Below are positions 1,733 through 29,645 of a DNA stretch of 32,000 bases, piece after piece. Numbering within the stretch: position 1 is the stretch's first letter; every line of letters begins with the position of its first letter. The stretch lies in NCBI RefSeq assembly GCF_000734015.1, contig NZ_CP008796.1, positions 30,001 to 62,000 on the forward strand. Reading direction: 5' to 3'. The DNA comes from Thermodesulfobacterium commune DSM 2178. GTDB lineage: Bacteria > Desulfobacterota > Thermodesulfobacteria > Thermodesulfobacteriales > Thermodesulfobacteriaceae. The position numbers and the translations under genes were made by a program. The notes beneath the pieces are model-generated. The model was given only the letters and a program-made list of their open reading frames with translations, ran no database searches and was not told the origin of the DNA.

Positions 1733-3301
1733 ATGCAGGTGGTAAAGGCCTCTGAGATGAAGGCTCTCGACGAATGGTTTATAAAAGAGGTAGGGGTTCC
1801 GGCTGAGGTGTTGATGGAAAGGGCGGGGCTTTCTGTGGCTGAGGCTATTTTTGAGGCCTATCCGGTAGAAACCTACGGCAGTGTGCTTGTGGTGTGCGGG
1901 CCAGGAAATAACGGTGGAGACGGGATGGTATGTGCCAGGCACCTGGTAAACCTTGGCTATGAGGTCGAGGTGGTACTTCTTGCAGAAAAAGAAACCTATC
2001 AGGGAGAGGCCTTGACCAACCTTAAGGTCCTTGAAAACTTAGGTTTTATGCCAGAAGAGGTGGGGTATATCGTTGAGTTTAGAAAGGTACTTTATGATTT
2101 TTCTCCTGAGATAATGGTGGATGCCATCTTTGGGACAGGGCTTAAAAGGCCTATCGAGGGAAATCTGGCTGCCATCGTTGAGGAAATAAACCTTTATCGA
2201 GAAACCAGGGGATGCAAGGTGGTTGCGGTAGACATGCCTTCTGGGGTGTGTGCTGATACAGGTGAGGTGCTTGGAACAGCTGTAAAGGCAGACCTTACCG
2301 TTACGTTTGAGCTACCCAAGGTAGGACAGTTTTTTTATCCGGGAAAAGAGTATGTGGGAAGGCTTAAGGTTTGTCCTATTGGGTTTTTCAAACCTTTGGT
2401 GGAAAAGAAGGCGCCTAAGAGGTATTTGATAGATTTGGAGTGGGCCAAAAAGGTATTCAGGCCGCGTAAAGGTTATACCCATAAAGGGCTTTTTGGACAT
2501 CTTCTTGTGTTAGCAGGAAGCAAGGGTAAGAGTGGGGCTGGGTTGCTTTCGGCATTGGGTGGTTTAAGGGCAGGGGCTGGGCTTGTGACCTTGGCCTCAA
2601 CCAGGAGTCTTCAGCCGGTATATGCATCTATGCTACCTGAAGCTCTGACTGCAGGGCTTGAAGAAGGCCCGAGAGGAGAGGTTAGTTATGCCAATCTTGA
2701 GTCCTTGCTTGACCTTTGCGAAAAGAAAACCGCCTTGGTGGTAGGCCCTGGACTTGGTTTAGGGGAAGAGGTAAAAAGGCTTTTCTGGGAGTTGTTAGAA
2801 AGGGTCAAGGTTCCGGTGTTGATCGATGCAGACGGGTTAACCATAGCCTCTGAAAACCCTGAAAGACTTAAAGAGCTTCCCTGTCCAAAGGTCCTTACCC
2901 CTCATCCAGGAGAGGCTGAGAGGTTGCTTAAAATTTCTAAGAAGGAGATTTTAAGAGACCCTTTAACCTCAGCTAAAAGGCTTTCTGAGATGACAGGTGC
3001 GGTGGTGGTGCTAAAGGGACCACATACGGTGATTTCTTCCCCTGACGGAAGAGAGGGGATTTCTGTCTGGGATGTGCCTGGGCTTTCTCAGGGAGGCACA
3101 GGGGATGTGCTTTCTGGGGTGATAGGAGCCTTGATGTCTCAAAGGTATGAGGTGTTTGAAGCAGCTTGCTTGGGGGTGTTTTTACACGGATGGGCAGGAG
3201 AAAAGCTTGCCTCTGAAAAAGGACCTTTCGGGTATCTGGCTTCAGAGGTGGCTAACAAAATCCCAGAAGTTTTAAAGGAGATATGTGATGATAGACCTTA
3301 G
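1733..3301 (+). CDS. nnr: bifunctional NAD(P)H-hydrate repair enzyme (epimerase + ADP-dependent dehydratase, YjeF family)
   Basis: N-terminal YjeF_N part (VVCGPGNNGGDG) fused to a C-terminal carbohydrate-kinase-like part (GPGLG, LKGPHTV, GGTGDVLSG). 522 aa, normal for the fusion. Confidence 0.9.
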   Translation: MQVVKASEMKALDEWFIKEVGVPAEVLMERAGLSVAEAIFEAYPVETYGSVLVVCGPGNNGGDGMVCARHLVNLGYEVEVVLLAEKETYQGEALTNLKVLENLGFMPEEVGYIVEFRKVLYDFSPEIMVDAIFGTGLKRPIEGNLAAIVEEINLYRETRGCKVVAVDMPSGVCADTGEVLGTAVKADLTVTFELPKVGQFFYPGKEYVGRLKVCPIGFFKPLVEKKAPKRYLIDLEWAKKVFRPRKGYTHKGLFGHLLVLAGSKGKSGAGLLSALGGLRAGAGLVTLASTRSLQPVYASMLPEALTAGLEEGPRGEVSYANLESLLDLCEKKTALVVGPGLGLGEEVKRLFWELLERVKVPVLIDADGLTIASENPERLKELPCPKVLTPHPGEAERLLKISKKEILRDPLTSAKRLSEMTGAVVVLKGPHTVISSPDGREGISVWDVPGLSQGGTGDVLSGVIGALMSQRYEVFEAACLGVFLHGWAGEKLASEKGPFGYLASEVANKIPEVLKEICDDRP

Positions 3302-3668
3302 AAGGTTTCCAAGATGCCCTACCAGGATTAAGGCTTATTTGCCGGGGTCTGAAGAGGCATACGAGGTGCTTAATGTTTCTTACAAGGGATGTTTTATCCG
3401 AACCGATAAGCTTATTCCTTTACGGAAGATGGTTCTTTTTGAGATAGAAATTCCTGAGGTAGGAGTGATCCCTGTTTATGGGCTGGTGGTACATCATGGC
3501 ACAGAAGAACAGCCAGGGTTAGGGATAGAGATCCTGGACATCGAACGAGAGCTTTTACCTGTGTGGAACTATTATCTAAAAGCCCTTTTAAACATAGAGG
3601 AGGCCAAAAAGGCTTATCAAAGATATTTGAAAACCTCTCAAAAGGTTGAAAATCCTCAGTCTGGTTAG
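3288..3668 (+). CDS. stand-alone PilZ domain protein (putative c-di-GMP receptor)
   Basis: Both halves of the PilZ c-di-GMP motif are visible: RRFPR (RxxxR) then NVSYKG ((D/N)xSxxG) 24 residues later. AAGGAG SD sits 7 nt before the ATG at 3288 (the track's 3285 is a GTG one codon earlier). Overlaps the nnr 3' end by 14 nt. Confidence 0.7.
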   Translation: MIDLRRFPRCPTRIKAYLPGSEEAYEVLNVSYKGCFIRTDKLIPLRKMVLFEIEIPEVGVIPVYGLVVHHGTEEQPGLGIEILDIERELLPVWNYYLKALLNIEEAKKAYQRYLKTSQKVENPQSG

Positions 3669-3671
3669 GGT

Positions 3672-4475
3672 TTGATGTTTAGTCTAATTGAGGTCCTGTT
3701 GATAGCGGTCTTGAGTTTAGCGTTAGGTAGTTTTTTTAACGTGGTTATCTACCGATGGTCAGAGGGTTTGTCTGTACTAAGGCCTGTCAGGTCTTTTTGT
3801 CCAAGGTGTAAAACTGAGCTTAAGTGGTATCACAACATTCCTGTTTTGTCTTATGTTATGCTTAAAGGAAGATGTGCTTTTTGTCAAAATCCAATCCCTC
3901 TCACCTATCCTCTGGTAGAGGTCCTAACCGCGGTGGTTGGAGTAGCTGCTTATTTAAAGTTTAAACCCTGGTATGGCTGGGCTACCTTTTTGGTTTTCTG
4001 GGTTTGGTTGATAATCCTTCTGGTGATAAGTTTTATCGACCTTAGGGTTAAGGAAATACCAGATAAGCTCAGTTTTGGTTTGATGTTGGCAGGACTTACG
4101 GCAAGTTTGTTAGGGTTAAACCCTCTGGTTGGTTTTGAAGAAAGTGTGGTTGGGATGTTAGCAGGGGCAGGCCTTCTTTTTCTGATTAACGAGGTCTACT
4201 ATCTTTTTGCTAAAAGAGATGGGCTTGGGATGGGAGATTTTAAGCTGATGGCTGGGATAGGTGCTTTTTTGGGGTATAAAAGTTTTTACTGGGTGGTGTT
4301 GATAGCCTCTTTTTCAGGGATTTTTGCCTTTTTTTTGGCAGTTCTGTGGTATCGATTAAAAGGGAAATCTAAAGACTTAAGCTTAAAAACAGAAATTCCT
4401 TTTGGGCCTTTTTTAGCCCTTGGGGCTGGTGTTTACACCTTTTTTGCAGAATTTTTTAAGACTTTTCTATCTTAA
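3672..4475 (+). CDS. pilD: prepilin peptidase / N-methyltransferase (peptidase A24 family)
   Basis: N-terminal Cys pairs CPRC...CAFC, polytopic membrane body, Asp motifs IDLRVKEIPD and GMGDFKLMAGIGAFLG typical of type IV prepilin peptidases. Start is TTG 3672 or ATG 3675. Confidence 0.87.
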   Translation: MMFSLIEVLLIAVLSLALGSFFNVVIYRWSEGLSVLRPVRSFCPRCKTELKWYHNIPVLSYVMLKGRCAFCQNPIPLTYPLVEVLTAVVGVAAYLKFKPWYGWATFLVFWVWLIILLVISFIDLRVKEIPDKLSFGLMLAGLTASLLGLNPLVGFEESVVGMLAGAGLLFLINEVYYLFAKRDGLGMGDFKLMAGIGAFLGYKSFYWVVLIASFSGIFAFFLAVLWYRLKGKSKDLSLKTEIPFGPFLALGAGVYTFFAEFFKTFLS

Positions 4476-6574
4476 TTTGCCTTAACAAGGTTTTCTTGAG
4501 AAGGAATTTTGATCACGATCGAGGTTCCTTTATCTTTCTTTCTGTAAAAATTTATGGTTCCTTTATGAAGGTCTATGATGGAGTATACCATGATAAGGCC
4601 TGTCCCTAAGTCTTTCAGGCTTAAAAGGTCTCCTTGGTTTATCTTTTCCACGACCTCTTGAGGCACTCCTTCTCCTGTGTCCTCTATTTTTAAGATTACC
4701 CAGCCTTCTTCTCTGGCAAGGGAGATTGAGAGTTCTCCTTTTTCTTGCATAGCCTTGATGGAGTTGTCAAACAGGTTTACCCACACCCTTTTTAACTGAA
4801 ACTTGTCAAACCAGCATTCTCCTTCGTCCTCTACCTTAAGCCTAAACTTTACCTCAGGATAGGCTATCTCATACAGAGAGATTACCTCTAACAGGCTTTC
4901 TAAAAGGGTGCCTTTTTCCAGGTTTAGCTCAGGTTTTTTGGTAAAGTAATGAAAGTCGGTGGCAAGTTTGCGAAGTTCTTCGATGTATTTTTCGATGATG
5001 TTGGTGGTTCTAAGTAAGACCTCTTTTTTCTCTCCTTCTAATGTTTTTTCAAGCTGTCTTTTAAGTCTTTCTACAGAGAGTTTGATAGGGGTTAAAGGAT
5101 TTTTTATCTCATGGGATACCCTTAAGGCTACCTCCTTCCAGAAAGAAAGCCTTTTTAGGCGTTCCTTTTCCTCTAAGTTTTCTACGATCAAGAGATATTC
5201 GTGGGTTTTTAAAAATTCAAGCTTAAGAAGGGTAATCCCTAAGCTAAACTCCTTCTGTTCTGTAGACCAGGAAAGGGTGGTGTAAAAGGGGTTGGTTAGG
5301 TCTATCTGGGATAAAAGGGCAGGAAGGTTAAGTTTGTCTATCAGGTCTTGTGGGGATTTAACTTCATAGTGTTTTAAAAGATGGTTAAGGCTCTGGTTAG
5401 AGAACTTGACGGTTAGGTCAGGGGTAAGGACCAGGATCCCTACAGGCAGATGATCAAGCACAGAAAGAAGGTAGCGGTTGTAGTTTTGGACCTCCTCTTC
5501 GTATTCTTTGATCTTTTTTGTCATCTCGTTAAAAGCCTCTACCAGCCTTCCTACCTCGTCGTCCAAAGGGGTGAGGCCTTTTAGTTCTTCCAGGTTGAAG
5601 TCTTTTTTAGAGATCTTTTGGGCTGCGATCACCAGGTTTTGTAAAGGTTCAGTAAGGTTTCTACCAAGTTTACTTCCTACCCATACCCCTACAAAAACCA
5701 CCAAAAGTAAAACCAGAGCTCCTGCAGTCATCAAAAACTGTTTAAAGGTTCTAAAGTATCTTTTTTCTACCAGTTCTTTTTCTCCTGAAAACTCTTCTAA
5801 CCTTAGGAATTTACCGATGGCTAAGATAAGGGGTTGGCCTTTTGAGTCGTAAAAGGGGATAAACACCCTTAGATAGGGACTTGAGTTAACCAGAGAGATT
5901 TCAGAAAGAGGGATTTTAGAGGCTTTTAGTCTTTCAAGAAAAGAAGGGGCAATCCCGATCTTTTGAGAAATCTCAGAGGAATAGGTTCTCTTTTTTAGGT
6001 TGCCTTGCCAGTCAAAAACTTCTATAGAGTCTACCCTCATAAAATAACGATACCTTTCTCTCAGGACAGAGCTTTTGATTTCTTCGGTTTGGGAAAGATA
6101 ATCTGTTATGATCTGTTGTCCTTTGCTAAGAAGGTCTCTTTCGATGTCTTTTATGTAATCCTCAGGTTTTAGAAGAACGGTTAACACCCTTTCTTCGAAA
6201 AATTCTTTAAGCCAGTAGTCTAAGGTTTTTTTAAAGAAAAAGAAACTTCCAAGCACAAGCACAACCGAAGGAAAAACGATAGAGATAAAGTAGATAAAAA
6301 AGAGCTTTACTTTAAGGCTTTTAGATACTTTTTTTATCTGGATTTCATAGAAAATCTTGATGACATACCTGAAGATAAAGTAAAGAAGAAGTAAAATAAG
6401 GATAAGGTTTATCTGAAACAGGAAAAACAGAAAAAGGTTTTTTTGAGAGGTAGAAAAAAGAGAAAGGTCGAAGAGGTTAAACTCAACCCATAGAGAAATG
6501 GTGAGGACTATCAAAAGTCCTAAGAAAATTTTGTGCCTTTTGCAAAAAGTCTTAATCCTTGCGATAGATAACAT
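4472..6574 (-). CDS. membrane sensor histidine kinase, NtrY-like (TM region-HAMP-PAS-HisKA-HATPase)
   Basis: Several N-terminal hydrophobic segments. HAMP-like LTEPLQNLVIAAQKIS...EVGRLVEAFNEM. PAS-like LLSVLDHLPVGILVL. H-box RVSHEIKNPLTPIKLSVERLKRQ, the NtrY-type wording. N box NLFDNSIKAM, G boxes EDTGEGVP and GTGLIMV. No response regulator gene on either side. Confidence 0.85.
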   Translation of the reverse strand: MLSIARIKTFCKRHKIFLGLLIVLTISLWVEFNLFDLSLFSTSQKNLFLFFLFQINLILILLLLYFIFRYVIKIFYEIQIKKVSKSLKVKLFFIYFISIVFPSVVLVLGSFFFFKKTLDYWLKEFFEERVLTVLLKPEDYIKDIERDLLSKGQQIITDYLSQTEEIKSSVLRERYRYFMRVDSIEVFDWQGNLKKRTYSSEISQKIGIAPSFLERLKASKIPLSEISLVNSSPYLRVFIPFYDSKGQPLILAIGKFLRLEEFSGEKELVEKRYFRTFKQFLMTAGALVLLLVVFVGVWVGSKLGRNLTEPLQNLVIAAQKISKKDFNLEELKGLTPLDDEVGRLVEAFNEMTKKIKEYEEEVQNYNRYLLSVLDHLPVGILVLTPDLTVKFSNQSLNHLLKHYEVKSPQDLIDKLNLPALLSQIDLTNPFYTTLSWSTEQKEFSLGITLLKLEFLKTHEYLLIVENLEEKERLKRLSFWKEVALRVSHEIKNPLTPIKLSVERLKRQLEKTLEGEKKEVLLRTTNIIEKYIEELRKLATDFHYFTKKPELNLEKGTLLESLLEVISLYEIAYPEVKFRLKVEDEGECWFDKFQLKRVWVNLFDNSIKAMQEKGELSISLAREEGWVILKIEDTGEGVPQEVVEKINQGDLLSLKDLGTGLIMVYSIIDLHKGTINFYRKKDKGTSIVIKIPSQENLVKAN

Positions 6575-9605: not shown

Positions 9606-11581
<1,976 letters not shown>

Positions 11582-15876: not shown

Positions 15877-16359
15877 ATGGAATCCTTCGAGCATCTACTC
15901 CAAATTCTTCCTATTCCTTACAAAACTAAAAAGGCTATACGAGCCTTGAAACTGGCTAAGTCTTTGTGGCCTAAGCTTTTAGACAGAGAATTAGCCTTAT
16001 GCTCAAATCCTATAAGGTATGAAGAAGGTACCTTAGTTGTAGAGACCTCAGACTACTACCATCTCCAACAGCTTCAACTAAAAGGTAGAGAAATTATAGA
16101 AGCCCTTGAAAAAGTAGCGCCTGAAAAAGAAAAACCACTTTTTGTTGACCTTAAGATAGTAATAAATCCTTTGATCTTCGAAAGATTAACTAAAAATAAA
16201 CAGTTGGTAAACTCAAAAGAAGGGGTTTTAAGGGTAAATCCCGAAGACGTTAAAGAACTTGAAAAAACCTTACAAAACCTGAAAGACCCTGAACTTGCGA
16301 AGTTGTTTAAAGGATTATTAAAGACATACTTCAAGGCTAAAAAGATTCAAAAAATTTAA
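15877..16359 (+). CDS. DUF721 (DciA-like) domain protein
   Basis: N-terminal 80 aa (LWPKLLDRELALCSNPIRYEEGTLVVETSDYYHLQQLQLKGREIIEAL) follows the DUF721 pattern as I recall it. The Lys-rich C-terminal half is unassigned. AAGGGAG SD. Confidence 0.5.
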   Translation: MESFEHLLQILPIPYKTKKAIRALKLAKSLWPKLLDRELALCSNPIRYEEGTLVVETSDYYHLQQLQLKGREIIEALEKVAPEKEKPLFVDLKIVINPLIFERLTKNKQLVNSKEGVLRVNPEDVKELEKTLQNLKDPELAKLFKGLLKTYFKAKKIQKI

Positions 16360-16397
16360 CAAAATCAAACTTTCCAACCCAAAAACTTATAGATTTG

Positions 16398-16426
16398 ATA
16401 AAAACCCCTGGGGTAACCCCCAGGGG
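16398..16426 (-). terminator. rho-independent terminator of the small exported-protein gene
   Basis: Minus-strand RNA CCCCUGGGGG-UUA-CCCCAGGGG (stem arms 16405-16413 / 16417-16426) followed by UUUUUAU (16398-16404), 18 nt after the stop at 16444. On the plus strand there is no U tract after the hairpin. Confidence 0.72.
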
Positions 16427-16443
16427 AAGATGTCTAAGAAAGC

Positions 16444-16662
16444 TTACTTCTTTTCAGGAGCGGCTGCAGGAGCAGCTTCCTTCTTTTCTTCGGCTTTCTT
16501 TTCGGCTTTTTTGGCTTTCTTAGCTTTCTTGGCTTTCTTTTCTACCTTCTTTTCAGCAGCAGGAGCAGCAGCCTTGTCAGCTGCAGGGGCAGCCTGTTCA
16601 GCTGCAAAAACAGGGGATACTAAAAGAGCTAAAGCAGCAACTAAACCTAATACCTTTTTCAT
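16444..16662 (-). CDS. small exported Lys/Ala/Glu-rich low-complexity protein (72 aa precursor)
   Basis: Sec-type signal peptide MKKVLGLVAALALLVSPVFA|AEQ. Strong SD AAGGAGGGAGG 6 nt before the ATG. Own promoter-like element upstream and terminator downstream. The overlapping plus-strand ORF (16430-16681) lacks all of these. Confidence 0.7.
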   Translation of the reverse strand: MKKVLGLVAALALLVSPVFAAEQAAPAADKAAAPAAEKKVEKKAKKAKKAKKAEKKAEEKKEAAPAAAPEKK

Positions 16663-16701
16663 AACCTACCTCCCTCCTTAAAGTTTTTTGTCTTGTATAT
16701 T

Positions 16702-16717
16702 AGCAAAAAGGATGCCC
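16702..16717 (-). promoter_or_regulatory. candidate sigma-54 (RpoN) -24/-12 promoter
   Basis: Minus strand GGGCATCCTTTTTGCT: GG (16716-16715) and GC (16704-16703) have the exact consensus spacing of TGGCAC-N5-TTGCW. GGCA and TTGCT match the consensus. Predicted TSS near 16691, giving a 29-nt leader. Confidence 0.5.
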
Positions 16718-16790
16718 AAATTTTTGAGGTTTGAAAATTAGGTTTTAAAAGGGGTTTTCCCTAAGTATGGGTTTGAAAAAACAGACACTT

Positions 16791-16846
16791 TGCAAAAATT
16801 GCACAGAGGTTTTTATGCAAAAATTACACAAGGTTAATTATTGCAA
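16791..16846. repeat. 25-bp direct repeat (2 full copies + partial) each carrying a TGCAA-N3-TTGCA dyad; candidate activator-binding sites
   Basis: tgcaaaaattgcaca (16791-16805) and tgcaaaaattacaca (16816-16830) are 25 bp apart. A third TTGCAA half-site at 16841-16846 keeps the same phase. Dyad centres are about 106 and 131 bp upstream of the predicted TSS. Confidence 0.55.
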
Positions 16847-17950
16847 GGTTGGGTCTTTTTTTTGTCCGGTAAGGATGGCTATAAGGTCTTTTACACTGAT
16901 GATCCCTTGTTTTTTAAGCAGATGTCCGTTTGTTCCGCTTATAAAGATACCTTCTTCGTAGTTTCCCATCCAGGCAGCACTCAGTTTCTCAGCTATACAA
17001 AAACCTACCTGAGAAGCCTTTTCTCCTTTTTTGCAAGGGGTTAAACAGTTGGAAACACAACCTTTAAAGTCTCGGTATCCTGCAAGGAATTTTTCTACAA
17101 AAGGTGTTTTGACTACCCTTAAAGGATATCCTACAGGAGAGTTGATCAGGATTATGTCTTCTGGGTTAAGTCTAAGGAGTATTTCTTTATAAATTTGAGG
17201 GGCGTCATACTCATAGGTACAGATAAACCGGGTAGCGATCTGCACCCCTGAAGCCCCCAGTTCTAAATATTTCTTGATATCTTGATAGCTCCAAACACCA
17301 CCAGCTACGATAACCTTAAGGTCCCCCCAGTTTTTGGCTTCTTCAAGCACCTCTGGTAACAAACTTTCTAATTGATATTCCTTTTTAAAGCAATCTTCTT
17401 TATGAAACCCTTGATGTCCTCCTGAAAGAGGCCCTTCTAAGACCACAGCATCTGGTAGTCTTTGGTAGCGTTTTTCCCAGGTTTGACAGATAAGCTTTAA
17501 AGCTCTGGCAGAAGAGACGATAGGTATTAGGGCTATGTCAAAACCTTTTACGTATTCTGGGAGTTTCAGAGGTAGCCCTGCTCCTGAGATGATAGCATCA
17601 GCCCCTGCCTCAGCAGCGTCTCTTACCACCCTTGGGTAATCTGTGATCGCACAAAGCACATTTACCCCGATCGCACCTCTACCTTGAGAAAGCTCTTTAG
17701 CCTTTTGAATAATCCTTTTTAGTGCCTCTCGGCTGTGGGTGTTTTCAGGTCCTATGGGTCTACCAAATTTGTCTTTTTTAACCAGCTCAGGGAAGCGATA
17801 CCCTGTACCTACGGCTGAAACAACCCCCATCGCTCCTTCTTTAGCCACAGCTCCTGCTAAATTTTCCCAAGAGATACCTACCCCCATTCCTCCTTGAATG
17901 ATAGGCACATCTAAGGTGATTTTTCCTATGGTAAGTTTGGGTAAACCCAT
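16838..17950 (-). CDS. NAD(P)H-dependent flavin oxidoreductase, nitronate monooxygenase / FabK-like family
   Basis: N-terminal PIIQGGMGVGIS...LAGAVAKEGAMGVVS, mid GADAIISGAGLP, and EGPLSGGH TIM-barrel FMN motifs of the NMO/FabK family. C-terminal extension has four Cys. Confidence 0.75.
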   Translation of the reverse strand: MGLPKLTIGKITLDVPIIQGGMGVGISWENLAGAVAKEGAMGVVSAVGTGYRFPELVKKDKFGRPIGPENTHSREALKRIIQKAKELSQGRGAIGVNVLCAITDYPRVVRDAAEAGADAIISGAGLPLKLPEYVKGFDIALIPIVSSARALKLICQTWEKRYQRLPDAVVLEGPLSGGHQGFHKEDCFKKEYQLESLLPEVLEEAKNWGDLKVIVAGGVWSYQDIKKYLELGASGVQIATRFICTYEYDAPQIYKEILLRLNPEDIILINSPVGYPLRVVKTPFVEKFLAGYRDFKGCVSNCLTPCKKGEKASQVGFCIAEKLSAAWMGNYEEGIFISGTNGHLLKKQGIISVKDLIAILTGQKKDPTLQ

Positions 17951-23615: not shown

Positions 23616-25510
23616 TCTCTTTCCCTTTCTGTGAGTTCAGCTAAGGCCCAAACCTCACCTTTCCCTTTGATTATAATTTTAACCCTTTTTTCCCCTTTTT
23701 CTATCAAGTTTCGAATGTTTTCTATGATAAAACTATCTCCTTGAGAGATTTTTTCATAGTCTGCCGGGTTTTCAAAGGTAAGAGGCAAGATTCCAAAGTT
23801 AATCAGGTTGCTTCTGTGGATCCTGGCAAAGGATCTGGCCAATTTTACCCTTACCCCTAAATACCTTGGGGCTAAGGCTGCATGTTCCCTTGAGGAACCT
23901 TGCCCGTAGTTTTCTCCTCCTACAATCCCTACAGCCAATCCTTTTTCTTTTAGCTCTAAAGATTTTTTAGCAAAATCTGGGTCTACGTTTTTGTATACAA
24001 ACTGGCTGATTGCCGGTAGGTTACTTCTTAAAGGTAAAATTTGGGCTCCAGCAGGCATGATATGGTCGGTTGTGATGTTATCTCCTACCTTTAACACAAA
24101 AATCCCTTCTAAGGTTTCAGGAAGAGGGTCAAACGGTGGAAGAGGAGCTATGTTAGGCCCTCTTATGATTTCTACTTTTTTTGCCTCATCTTCTGGTAGA
24201 GGTGGTATTAGAAGGGTGTCGTTTATAATAAACTTTTCTGGAAGAACTACCTCTGGATATTCTCCTAATTCTCTTGGGTCGGTTATTACCCCTTTGATGG
24301 CAGAGGCTACCGCGGTTTCAGGAGAGACTAAATATACGAAATCAGGGTTTGTGCCAGAACGTCCTGGGAAGTTTCTGGTAAAAGTTCTTAGAGAGATGGA
24401 GTTAGTAGGAGGGGCTTGTCCCATACCAATACAACCTAAGCATCCACTTTGGTGAAGCCTTGTGCCTCCCTCTAACAGGGATTTTAATCCTGAAAGTACT
24501 ACCAGATTTTCAAGCACCTGAAGAGACCCAGGGTTTACCTCAAAAGAGACGTCAGGATGCACTTTATATTTTTCAAGTACCTTAGCTACAACCAGCAGGT
24601 CTTTTAACGAAGAATTGGCACAAGACCCTATGATAACCTGAGCCACAGGTTTACCTGCCTCTTCTGCAACCCTTTTTACGTTGTCAGGAGAAGAGGGACA
24701 GGCGCAAAGAGGTTCTAACTTGGAAAGGTCAACCTCTATGATTTCGTCATACTGAGCGTTTTCGTCAGGCAAAAGTTCTACAAAGTCCTGTTCTCTTCCC
24801 TGAGCTATCAGCCATTTACGGGTAATTTCATCAGATGGGAAAATACTGGTGGTTGCTCCCATTTCTGTACCTAAATTACAGATGGTAGCCCTTTCAGGTA
24901 CGCTAAGATACTTTATCCCGGGGCCAAAATACTCTAAAATTTTCCCTAAACCACCTTTTACCGTAAGTTTAGAAAGAAGATAAAGAGCAATGTCTCTTGC
25001 TGTTACCCAAGGCTGAAGTTTTCCCTCTAAATAAACTCCTACTATCTTAGGAGTTCTAAGATAAAAGGGCTTTCCTGCCATAGCCATCGCTACATCAAGG
25101 CCACCTGCACCTATGGCAATCATTCCACATCCGCCAGCAGTAGGGGTATGGCTGTCAGAACCTAACAAGGTTTTACCAGGCCTGGCAAACCTTTCCAAAT
25201 GCACCTGATGACAGATCCCGTTCCCTGGCTTAGAAAACCAAATCCCATAACGTTTGGCTATACTTTGTAAAAACCTGTGGTCGTCTGCGTTTTTAAAATC
25301 ACTCTGTAAGATGTTATGGTCTACATAAGATACCGAAAGTTCTGTTTTTACTCTGTCTATACCTATGGCTTCAAACTCAAGATAAGCCATCGTCCCGGTT
25401 GCATCTTGGGTAAGGGTTTGGTCTATCTTGATGGCGATTTCTTCTCCAGGCACTAAACGCCCAGACACTAAATGGTTTTCTAAAATTTTGTAAGCCAAAG
25501 GTTTCCCCAT
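23570..25510 (-). CDS. aconitate hydratase, short 'Aquifex-type' member of the aconitase superfamily
   Basis: 646 aa. IDQTLTQDATGTMA, GSDSHTPTAGG, GSCANSS, Fe-S Cys region CLGCIGMG and swivel-domain GENYGQGSSREHAAL motifs. Domain order as in the single-chain putative aconitases of Aquificae/thermophiles. Confidence 0.87.
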   Translation of the reverse strand: MGKPLAYKILENHLVSGRLVPGEEIAIKIDQTLTQDATGTMAYLEFEAIGIDRVKTELSVSYVDHNILQSDFKNADDHRFLQSIAKRYGIWFSKPGNGICHQVHLERFARPGKTLLGSDSHTPTAGGCGMIAIGAGGLDVAMAMAGKPFYLRTPKIVGVYLEGKLQPWVTARDIALYLLSKLTVKGGLGKILEYFGPGIKYLSVPERATICNLGTEMGATTSIFPSDEITRKWLIAQGREQDFVELLPDENAQYDEIIEVDLSKLEPLCACPSSPDNVKRVAEEAGKPVAQVIIGSCANSSLKDLLVVAKVLEKYKVHPDVSFEVNPGSLQVLENLVVLSGLKSLLEGGTRLHQSGCLGCIGMGQAPPTNSISLRTFTRNFPGRSGTNPDFVYLVSPETAVASAIKGVITDPRELGEYPEVVLPEKFIINDTLLIPPLPEDEAKKVEIIRGPNIAPLPPFDPLPETLEGIFVLKVGDNITTDHIMPAGAQILPLRSNLPAISQFVYKNVDPDFAKKSLELKEKGLAVGIVGGENYGQGSSREHAALAPRYLGVRVKLARSFARIHRSNLINFGILPLTFENPADYEKISQGDSFIIENIRNLIEKGEKRVKIIIKGKGEVWALAELTERERECILKGSLLNLAKAG

Positions 25511-28125: not shown

Positions 28126-29607
28126 TTAGCCTAAAAATTTACGCAGATAACCTGCTTCTACTATCAGGCTGGTAGCTTGCGAGGAAAGTCCTTTTTTAAG
28201 GTTTTTAAGTAGGGTAGAAGTGACTTCTTTATGTTCCTCGTTTGGCTCATAGTTAAGGTTTAAAATATTTAGGAGGTTCAGAGCTTTGATAATTTTGTTT
28301 TTGACCTCTTCAGGCATAAGGTCTAAGCATTTTGGGTTAAAATATTGGAGAGCTTTAGAAAAATCAAACTCTAAGTTGTGGTAATAGTTTTTAAGTTCAT
28401 GTAACTCTTCTTTGGTTAAAGCGTTTAACCCAAAGATTTCAGGGGGAAGACCTATAGAATAACAGGCAGCACAAAAGCTTATAACCCTTGGGAGCACTAT
28501 CCCATGAAGGCTTCTTGAGTAACCAAAAAGGCCTATATGGAGTTTTCTCATCCTTCTTTTTGGTACAAATTTGGCTAATTCGTTTATCGCAGGAGCAATC
28601 GGGGCGATGGTAGCTTTATACTCTTCTGAAATCTTTTGGATTATTTTTTGACAAAATTCAAAGTCTATGTCTGAGATAGGATGTCTGATAAAAGTTTTTA
28701 CTTTTTTGATCCCTGAAATTACATCCTCTACCGGAAAATCATATTTAAAGGCAGACTGAACGGTAAAGGTTTCTACCGAAGAATACTCAGAAAGAACCTT
28801 TTCTACGGTGTAAGGAGAAAAGTTCCCTCTAAAAACAGGGGTTCCTACCCCTAATATAGGATAAACCTCTACATCATGCTTTAAGGCAAAACTTTCTAAT
28901 TTTTTTAAGGCAATTTTAACCCCTAAAACAGCACTTATAAGCCCATAGTTTAACGCCGGGTCAGATCGAGCTAAAAACACCCGAAGATAGGTCAGATTTT
29001 TGTCTTTAACATACTCTTCCAAGATTCGATCTATGTTAAAAAAGGATTCGATGTTTTCAAAAAGTGGAATAACGTTGATACTTTCAGGTAGAAACTCACC
29101 TACCCACTCAGCTACCGTGATGTCTCCTGGGTAAATAGGTTGATGTTGGAGACCAGCGATAAAGTTTTTGTAGTAATAATAAACCCGGTTGAGTTCCTTG
29201 GCTGAAGTGGTCATTGGGAGTATTACCTCAAAAATCGGAGGAGGATGATCCTTTAAGAAGATACGGGCTGCATCCATAGACCGAGGGATACTTTCTAAGG
29301 CCTCAACTAAAATTTTAGCCTCATCTTTTTCTACCGTGGGGTTAGGGATTCTAAGGGTGATAAAACAGTCCTTGCCTAAAAGATGTCTTTTAAAAAAATT
29401 AGGATACTTACTATAAAGCTTTTTAACCACAAAGTCGTCTACCTCTTTGCCTTCACTGTCCCACATCTGTTCATCGCAACCTAAATGAGAAAAGGCATAA
29501 TAGGCCTCTTGGATCTCGTCTTCACCTGACATGTCAGGATGCTCTGCAAAAAAAGGCATGGAAACGTTATCTGGATGTTGGGTAGACATCACCCTTGGAA
29601 CCTTCAT
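28126..29607 (-). CDS. ppcA: phosphoenolpyruvate carboxylase, archaeal type
   Basis: MKVPRVMSTQHPDN N-terminus and DEQMWDSEGKEVD motif are characteristic of the ~500-aa archaeal-type PEPC, not the ~900-aa bacterial Ppc. I prefer ATG 29607 (GAGG SD 5 nt upstream) over the track's GTG 29613. Confidence 0.85.
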   Translation of the reverse strand: MKVPRVMSTQHPDNVSMPFFAEHPDMSGEDEIQEAYYAFSHLGCDEQMWDSEGKEVDDFVVKKLYSKYPNFFKRHLLGKDCFITLRIPNPTVEKDEAKILVEALESIPRSMDAARIFLKDHPPPIFEVILPMTTSAKELNRVYYYYKNFIAGLQHQPIYPGDITVAEWVGEFLPESINVIPLFENIESFFNIDRILEEYVKDKNLTYLRVFLARSDPALNYGLISAVLGVKIALKKLESFALKHDVEVYPILGVGTPVFRGNFSPYTVEKVLSEYSSVETFTVQSAFKYDFPVEDVISGIKKVKTFIRHPISDIDFEFCQKIIQKISEEYKATIAPIAPAINELAKFVPKRRMRKLHIGLFGYSRSLHGIVLPRVISFCAACYSIGLPPEIFGLNALTKEELHELKNYYHNLEFDFSKALQYFNPKCLDLMPEEVKNKIIKALNLLNILNLNYEPNEEHKEVTSTLLKNLKKGLSSQATSLIVEAGYLRKFLG

Positions 29608-29645
29608 AACCACCTCTATCTAAAAAAGTTTTTTGAAGACTCCAT

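Follow-up and report, generated by a model that had tools for sequence, protein, structure and literature searches.

The locus and its genes

This analysis concerns a small minus-strand gene in a 32,000-nucleotide stretch of DNA from Thermodesulfobacterium commune DSM 2178 (contig NZ_CP008796.1, positions 30,001 to 62,000; hereafter the window), together with the 175-bp intergenic gap (16663-16837) that very probably carries its sigma-54 (RpoN) promoter. The gene (16662-16444) encodes a 72-aa pre-protein with a 20-aa signal peptide and a Lys/Ala-rich basic peptide of about 52 aa. On its upstream side, a 370-aa nitronate-monooxygenase (NMO) family gene ends in a stop codon at 16840-16838, and no terminator was predicted between the two genes. 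Downstream, an intrinsic terminator at 16426-16405 (minus) consists of the GC-rich hairpin CCCCTGGGGGTTACCCCAGGGG followed by TTTTT, and dciA, the gene beyond it, runs towards the small gene from the other side; because of both, the small gene is monocistronic. Its ATG (16662-16660) is preceded by a strong Shine-Dalgarno sequence, AAGGAGGGAGG, at 16679-16669. The features on which the argument relies are the following.

16444-16662, minus: gene for the 72-aa pre-protein (open reading frame and composition)
16663-16690, minus: 5' leader with the Shine-Dalgarno sequence (direct reading)
16691, minus: predicted transcription start (standard geometry)
16697-16705, minus: extended -10-like TGcTAATAT, a rival sigma-70 element that is not conserved
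16702-16717, minus: sigma-54 -24/-12 element GGGCATCCTTTTTGCT (direct reading, weight matrix and 11 of 12 lineages)
16750-16787: variable stretch separating the dyads from the promoter-proximal block (allele identity)
16791-16803: proximal dyad, candidate site for a bacterial enhancer-binding protein (bEBP), invariant in alleles
16816-16828: distal dyad, candidate bEBP site, invariant in alleles

After the predicted VFA/A cleavage, the mature peptide contains 17 Lys, 20 Ala and 8 Glu but no Arg, with a pI of 9.8, a net charge of +8 and a (KKA)n core, and its relatives are similar. Small relatives that share a signal peptide and a KKAKKAKK core turned up in a protein search, and a profile search returned 617 family members at E<=1e-3. 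Every one of these carries a hypothetical annotation, and the labels of some name Desulfuromonadaceae, Syntrophus or 'Proteobacteria'. No Pfam family was found for the small protein. The best NCBIfam hit is Asr (NF033636), against which the window protein scores 25.2 bits and eight relatives score 17-31 bits; since these scores are below the 50-bit cutoff, the protein falls outside the Asr family. Our guess is that the peptide is a periplasmic or envelope polycation made under envelope-related stress.

An RNA element in the gap was also considered. It was rejected, as Rfam gave sub-threshold noise only and the folding z was -0.5.

The promoter element and its chance level

Read directly on the minus strand, GGGCATCCTTTTTGCT occupies 16717-16702 and has the form GGGCAT-N5-TTGCT, which matches 9 of the 11 consensus positions. 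Its GG (16716-16715) and GC (16704-16703) doublets are 10 nt apart, the separation of the sigma-54 consensus, and the -12 C lies 40 nt upstream of the ATG on the coding strand of the small gene. It is the sole exact match to GGCAY-N5-TTGCW in the window. These readings bear out in every coordinate and in the spacing an earlier note on this DNA, which had proposed a -24/-12 element here. From the standard geometry of sigma-54 promoters, transcription would start near 16691, 12 nt downstream of the -12 C, leaving a leader of 29 nt.

A weight matrix was built from 52 validated sigma-54 promoters (S2 seed table of PMC12316311). The element is its top hit in the window at 15.3 bits, within the range of the validated sites themselves (8.4-20.5 bits, median 17.1), and it is nearly identical to the validated Escherichia coli hyfA promoter TGGCATCCTTTATGCA. 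The runner-up, TGGCACAAACCCTGAT (14.6 bits; 24341-24356, minus), lies inside the aconitase open reading frame, has GA in place of GC at -12 and is probably a chance match.

Several points weigh against a sigma-54 promoter at this place. The -26 position is G where the consensus has T. The window contains one GGCA-N6-TTGC where 0.73 would be expected, much as the earlier note had anticipated in expecting about one such match by chance, and 9 of 40 shuffled windows reach 15.3 bits, so the promoter core alone is not significant in 32 kb. In addition, the extended -10-like TGcTAATAT (16705-16697) overlaps the -12 element and predicts nearly the same start. The earlier note had left this sequence unmentioned, though its statement that no convincing -35/-10 pair is present holds, as a promoter scan of 16300-17000 reported no sigma-70 pair. 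What decides between these views is the comparison with other lineages.

Conservation across lineages of the protein family

We compared DNA from 12 lineages that carry the small-protein family, comprising Thermodesulfobacterium-like organisms, Desulfuromonadaceae, Syntrophus and metagenomic bacteria, with the window counted as one; a metagenome scan for related loci gave three loci. In 11 of the 12 lineages we found GG-N10-GC with TGGCAY/WTGCW flanks (TGGCAY-N5-WTGCW), its -12 C lying 40-47 nt before the ATG. Besides the window, the elements are as follows.

L091/L099: TGGCATGAGTTATGCA
L095: AGGTATACTTTTTGCA
L100: TGGCACGGCTGATGCT
L104: TGGCACAACTAATGCA
L105: TGGCACAACATCTGCA
L106: TGGCATGGCTCGTGCT
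L107: TGGCACCAGTTCTGCA
L108: TGGCACAACACATGCT
L109: TGGCACAGCAAATGCA
L110: TGGCATCTGTTCTGCA

With the GC as the anchor for the regions, the sigma-54 element alone is conserved and the remainder cannot be aligned; an 11-sequence alignment of the related loci was likewise too diverse. The probability of an equally good match at that position, computed analytically from local base composition over a 12-nt positional window for eight lineages, is 3e-5 to 7e-4 per lineage. The neighbourhoods of the small gene are unrelated among lineages (ftsK, a MinD-like ATPase, an MFS transporter, guaB, a PNPOx-family gene and others), and the gene is often divergent from its neighbour, with the distance to the -24/-12 element unchanged. 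The earlier note had made its proposal, that a sigma-54 promoter drives the small exported-protein gene, depend on the element being retained in relatives, and the orthologue comparison strongly supports that proposal.

The same comparison bears on the view that the gene has no dedicated promoter, is reached by read-through from the PHP-nadA-NMO genes and owes all its motifs to chance. The lack of a predicted terminator after the NMO gene and the chance-level score of the core would fit such a view, but it does not account for a -24/-12 element kept at the same distance in different, often divergent neighbourhoods, and we find it hardly credible.

More serious, although still very unlikely in our judgement, is transcription by sigma-70 RNA polymerase from TGcTAATAT, with GG-N10-GC a coincidence and the dyads classical activator or repressor sites. 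TG-n-TAATAT is a reasonable extended -10 with a start near 16690, and one lineage of the twelve seems to have taken such a course. In L102/L103 (P0009/P0010/P0016; L102 ~900-1096, L103 ~310-504) the sigma-54 element is lacking, and an extended -10 TGaTATAGT, an upstream palindrome ACATTAGAATTTTCTAATGT and a leader hairpin CCCTC...GAGGG are present instead, which looks like a gene rewired to sigma-70 plus a repressor. Elsewhere, however, it is the GG and the GC that are kept at a fixed distance, and not the hexamer. In the close relative Thermodesulfobacterium thermophilum DSM 1276 (L001), whose NMO gene is 98% identical, the sequence is TGCCAATAT (CAATAT): the -12 element reads TTGCC, so that the GC is kept and the first T of the extended -10-like sequence is altered. 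A -10-like hexamer after the GC is absent at the equivalent place in L105 and L107, and the sigma-70 reading therefore fails to explain the conservation. It also lacks a -35 element, and positions -106 and -131, where the dyads lie, are beyond the upstream reach of class I or class II activation of sigma-70 promoters. We therefore regard the promoter, on comparative grounds, as sigma-54-type with high confidence.

Two observations concern individual loci in this set. Because its -12 element reads TTGCC, the L001 site is quasi-palindromic, and the opposite strand at 5233-5249 reads TGGCAAAAAGGATGCC, also GG-N10-GC, pointing back into the NMO gene. At L099 3322-3570 (P0004) and in P0006, the gene calls are 15 residues too long (MHVFKQKLKRGGGVV…), starting at an ATG within the -12 element (ATGCAT); these extensions, which read through the leader and the Shine-Dalgarno sequence, are annotation artefacts.

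The upstream dyads as a candidate enhancer

Upstream of the promoter lie two dyads of the form TGCAA-N3-TTGCA, as the earlier note had described. The proximal one, TGCAATTTTTGCA (TGCAA-TTT-TTGCA; 16803-16791), is perfect and centred at -106; the distal one, TGTAATTTTTGCA (TGTAA-TTT-TTGCA; 16828-16816), has one mismatch and is centred at -131. Each lies within one of two 25-nt tandem direct repeats (16791-16840) that are 76% identical. An enhancer layout comprises at least two dyads about 80-150 bp upstream of a sigma-54 start, and both centres fall within that zone. A palindromic, half-site-like TTGCAA at 16846-16841, in the last codons of the NMO gene, is a possible third, weak site, and its conservation is uninformative because it is coding sequence. 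The earlier note had called this third copy in phase; it is present, but 21.5 bp beyond the distal dyad. Nor are the two dyads helically phased as had been supposed, since their 25-bp spacing corresponds to 2.4 turns.

With up to one mismatch, TGCAA-N3-TTGCA occurs four times in the window against 0.75 expected, a count that none of 100 shuffles reached. Two of the four are the promoter dyads, and the others lie inside serS and the phosphoglucosamine mutase gene. The distal 13-mer is copied exactly at 11102-11114 (+), inside serS and far from gene starts, probably by chance. The earlier note had suggested looking for co-occurrence of the dyad and the sigma-54 site elsewhere; over 800 kb of sequence, the pair was found at orthologous loci and nowhere else.

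Variation among close relatives gives a view of constraint within the gap. The exact 72-aa protein is recorded in 47 assembly-index blocks, and the 22 carrier contigs that were read all have the same gene order. Four variant alleles of the gap were compared (L001, L082, L084 and L085). All four retain both 13-bp dyad cores intact, and the five substitutions in the dyad region of L082 are all beside the cores. The promoter-proximal 87 bp (16663-16749) are 97-100% identical among alleles. They include a conserved A/T-tract block, TTTTAAAACCTAATTTTCAAACCTCAAAAATTT, at 16718-16749 (minus) directly upstream of the -24 element, which is partly recognisable in L091 and is possibly a bend or a nucleoid-protein site that aids looping. 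Between the two conserved blocks, the 38-bp spacer (16750-16787) is 68-74% identical, compared with 93-97% at third codon positions of the NMO gene. The pattern resembles a footprint, but at so low a divergence it is only modest evidence that the dyads are constrained.

The spacer itself appears as a hypervariable or recombinationally replaced patch. Length also varies within the gene, as the low-complexity region of the small protein differs between close species; the orthologue in L001 (~5290-5400) has a deletion in the Ala/Pro-rich part (…AAEQAAPAAEKKVEKK…).

Other lineages carry dyads of their own upstream of the sigma-54 element. In L091, a CGACA/TGTCG array lies at -70 to -86. L095 has CCTCATTTGGGG at -120 and CCCCAAATGGGA at -101, both related to a TACCnCAAATGAGGTA-like dyad. 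Outside the Thermodesulfobacterium-like set, 7 of 8 lineages have a 14-16 bp TACCnCAAATGAGGTA-like dyad centred -125.5 to -129.5 from the predicted start, at the following positions.

L100: 1597-1610
L104: 4833-4846
L105: 2333-2346
L106: 689-702
L107: 737-750
L108: 5832-5845
L110: 5834-5847

Judged from its sequence and place, this dyad looks like a position-locked enhancer for some bEBP. As the dyads of other lineages lie 85-130 bp upstream with differing motifs, an enhancer would be a trait of the family and its sequence clade-specific. The enhancer reading of the window dyads is thus supported by analogy, not homology.

The evidence that counts against an enhancer function concerns both the sequence and the geometry of the dyads. 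The motif differs in the nearest other lineages, which have CGACA/TGTCG arrays (L091) or CCnCAAATGnGG (L095). With 8 bp between their centres, the half-sites lie close together for typical dimers of Fis-type bEBPs, and the non-integral number of turns between the repeats (~2.4) does not place the two dyads on the same face of the helix. Furthermore, the alleles are 3-7% diverged at neutral sites, a comparison of low power in which 26 unchanged dyad bases say little about constraint. All of this would suit an alternative in which the sigma-54 promoter is real and the repeats are not its enhancer, being instead a neutral tandem duplication or the site of another protein, such as a LysR-type regulator, whose T-N11-A site is compatible with a 13-bp dyad, or a nucleoid protein. 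The true activator site might then be, for example, the block at 16718-16749 or lie inside the NMO gene. Yet the position at -106/-131, the duplication and the dyad symmetry together are the textbook layout of an enhancer, dyads lie in the same zone in every other sigma-54-bearing lineage, the allele substitutions avoid the cores, and there is no other nearby gene start for the dyads to regulate. We therefore consider this alternative unlikely. A role of the TGCAA-N3-TTGCA dyads as a bEBP enhancer is likely, because the cores are invariant among alleles and because other lineages have different dyads at -85 to -130. A dependence on an enhancer-binding protein acting through these dyads, as claimed in the earlier note, is plausible in view of the layout, the allele invariance and the dyads that other lineages have in this zone; the dyad motif is not shared by distant lineages.

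Sigma-54 machinery and a model for activation

Thermodesulfobacterium sp. TA1 encodes a single RpoN (F1847_05130), complete in its three domains, along with 14 bEBPs, according to a 2025 survey (PMC12316311 supplements). Apart from this survey of a congener, literature searches on sigma-54 or rpoN in Thermodesulfobacterium came up empty. That three Thermodesulfobacterium-like lineages have kept the element suggests, indirectly, that they use the factor.

No rpoN or bEBP gene is present in the window, in agreement with the earlier note, which had placed the activator elsewhere. That no bEBP gene lies near the small gene at any locus examined also tells against a bEBP-dependent promoter. The earlier note had pointed to an NtrY-like kinase in the window and, through it, to the bEBP NtrX. 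This link did not survive: the 700-aa kinase (4472-6574) shows no domains beyond HAMP, HisKA and HATPase_c, its top-scoring NCBIfam models (WalK, AtoS and PnpS) all stay far under their cutoffs, and no response regulator adjoins it or occurs in the window. Genes for a prepilin peptidase, a functionally uncharacterised 182-aa protein and an AsnC/NirD-like protein lie next to it, and nothing ties it to the promoter. In its own right, the region 3285-6574 is a cluster of a PilZ-domain protein, a prepilin peptidase (A24) and this orphan HAMP histidine kinase. A paper on the Geobacter RpoN regulon has no mention of guaB, GSU2195/GSU2196, or a lysine-rich, small or periplasmic protein.

Collectively, these results favour a dedicated sigma-54 promoter with upstream bEBP sites that drives the monocistronic small gene, a reading to which we assign a probability of roughly 75%. 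In such a model, sigma-54 RNA polymerase would bind the GG(-24)/GC(-12) element at 16717-16702 as a closed complex that cannot open unaided, and transcription of the gene in vivo would depend on sigma-54. A bEBP encoded elsewhere in the genome would bind the dyads at -106 and -131 as dimers, oligomerise upon its signal, reach the closed complex through looping of the intervening A/T-tract DNA and open the promoter by ATP hydrolysis. Transcription would then run from near 16691 to the terminator at 16426-16405.

Other features of the window

The closest relatives of the NMO-family gene (16838-17950, minus) after T. thermophilum are all from Aquificaceae/Aquificota, at 67-77% amino-acid identity (L002-L045), and no further Thermodesulfobacteria occur among the 80 best loci. 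This distribution suggests that the gene was transferred laterally between Aquificota and Thermodesulfobacterium. The window also contains, at 28126-29613 (minus), a full-length archaeal-type phosphoenolpyruvate carboxylase (PF14010 and TIGR02751, both ~600 bits).

Significance and comparison with known systems

Sigma-54 promoters with activator sites upstream are a textbook arrangement, and the element on its own adds little. The comparative evidence nevertheless makes this an unusually secure promoter call, which can serve as an anchor for the sigma-54 regulons of thermophilic sulfate reducers; no experimental promoter mapping for Thermodesulfobacterium was found in the literature. Mildly novel is that, across Thermodesulfobacteriota, an unannotated family of tiny polycations made for export has stayed under sigma-54 control as its enhancer motif turned over. 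The maintenance of this control across distant lineages with a changing enhancer points to a conserved, signal-gated envelope function, and the gene family offers a compact natural system for studying the co-evolution of bEBPs and enhancers.

The E. coli glnAp2 promoter is the closest parallel in layout. It has NtrC sites at -108 and -140 with the sequence TGCACC-N5-GGTGCA, 17 bp long and 32 bp (3 turns) apart. Both promoters thus combine a -24/-12 element with two tandem dyads about 105-140 bp upstream, an arrangement that implies looping, and in the window the dyads are at -106 and -131. They differ in the dyads themselves, which in the window are TGCAA-N3-TTGCA, 13 bp long and 25 bp apart, and in function, since glnAp2 serves nitrogen assimilation and the window gene encodes a small exported peptide. 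NtrC1-NtrC4 of Aquifex aeolicus are sigma-54/bEBP systems of a thermophile whose Fis-type DNA-binding domains recognise upstream dyads, and the system proposed here would resemble them in this.

The E. coli genes zraP, pspA and hyfA also have sigma-54 promoters, hyfA with the almost identical element described above, and zraP and psp serve small envelope or periplasmic stress proteins. These promoters are in line with a published proposal that places the cell exterior under sigma-54 control (PMC3162934). The window protein is, however, unrelated to ZraP, Spy and PspA, with sub-threshold hits at the level of the signal peptide only, and its gene has no adjoining cognate two-component system.

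In its product, the window gene most resembles Asr of enterobacteria, which likewise combines a signal peptide with a short, low-complexity, Lys/Ala-rich basic peptide and is encoded by a monocistronic stress-type gene. The likeness is one of composition and architecture only, and the window protein lacks the His/Gln-rich repeats of Asr. The asr gene is transcribed from a sigma-70 promoter under PhoB/RstA, whereas the family described here carries sigma-54 promoters; no relevant report of Asr being under sigma-54 control emerged from a literature search. We tentatively propose, at odds a little short of even, that the unannotated family of at least 617 exported, lysine-only polycations of about 50 residues (pI ~10) constitutes a single-gene sigma-54 regulon across Thermodesulfobacteriota, with a clade-specific enhancer at about -105 to -130. 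If true, this would be an unrecognised and widely conserved bEBP-controlled envelope response, whose effector, a disordered periplasmic polycation, would be analogous to Asr.

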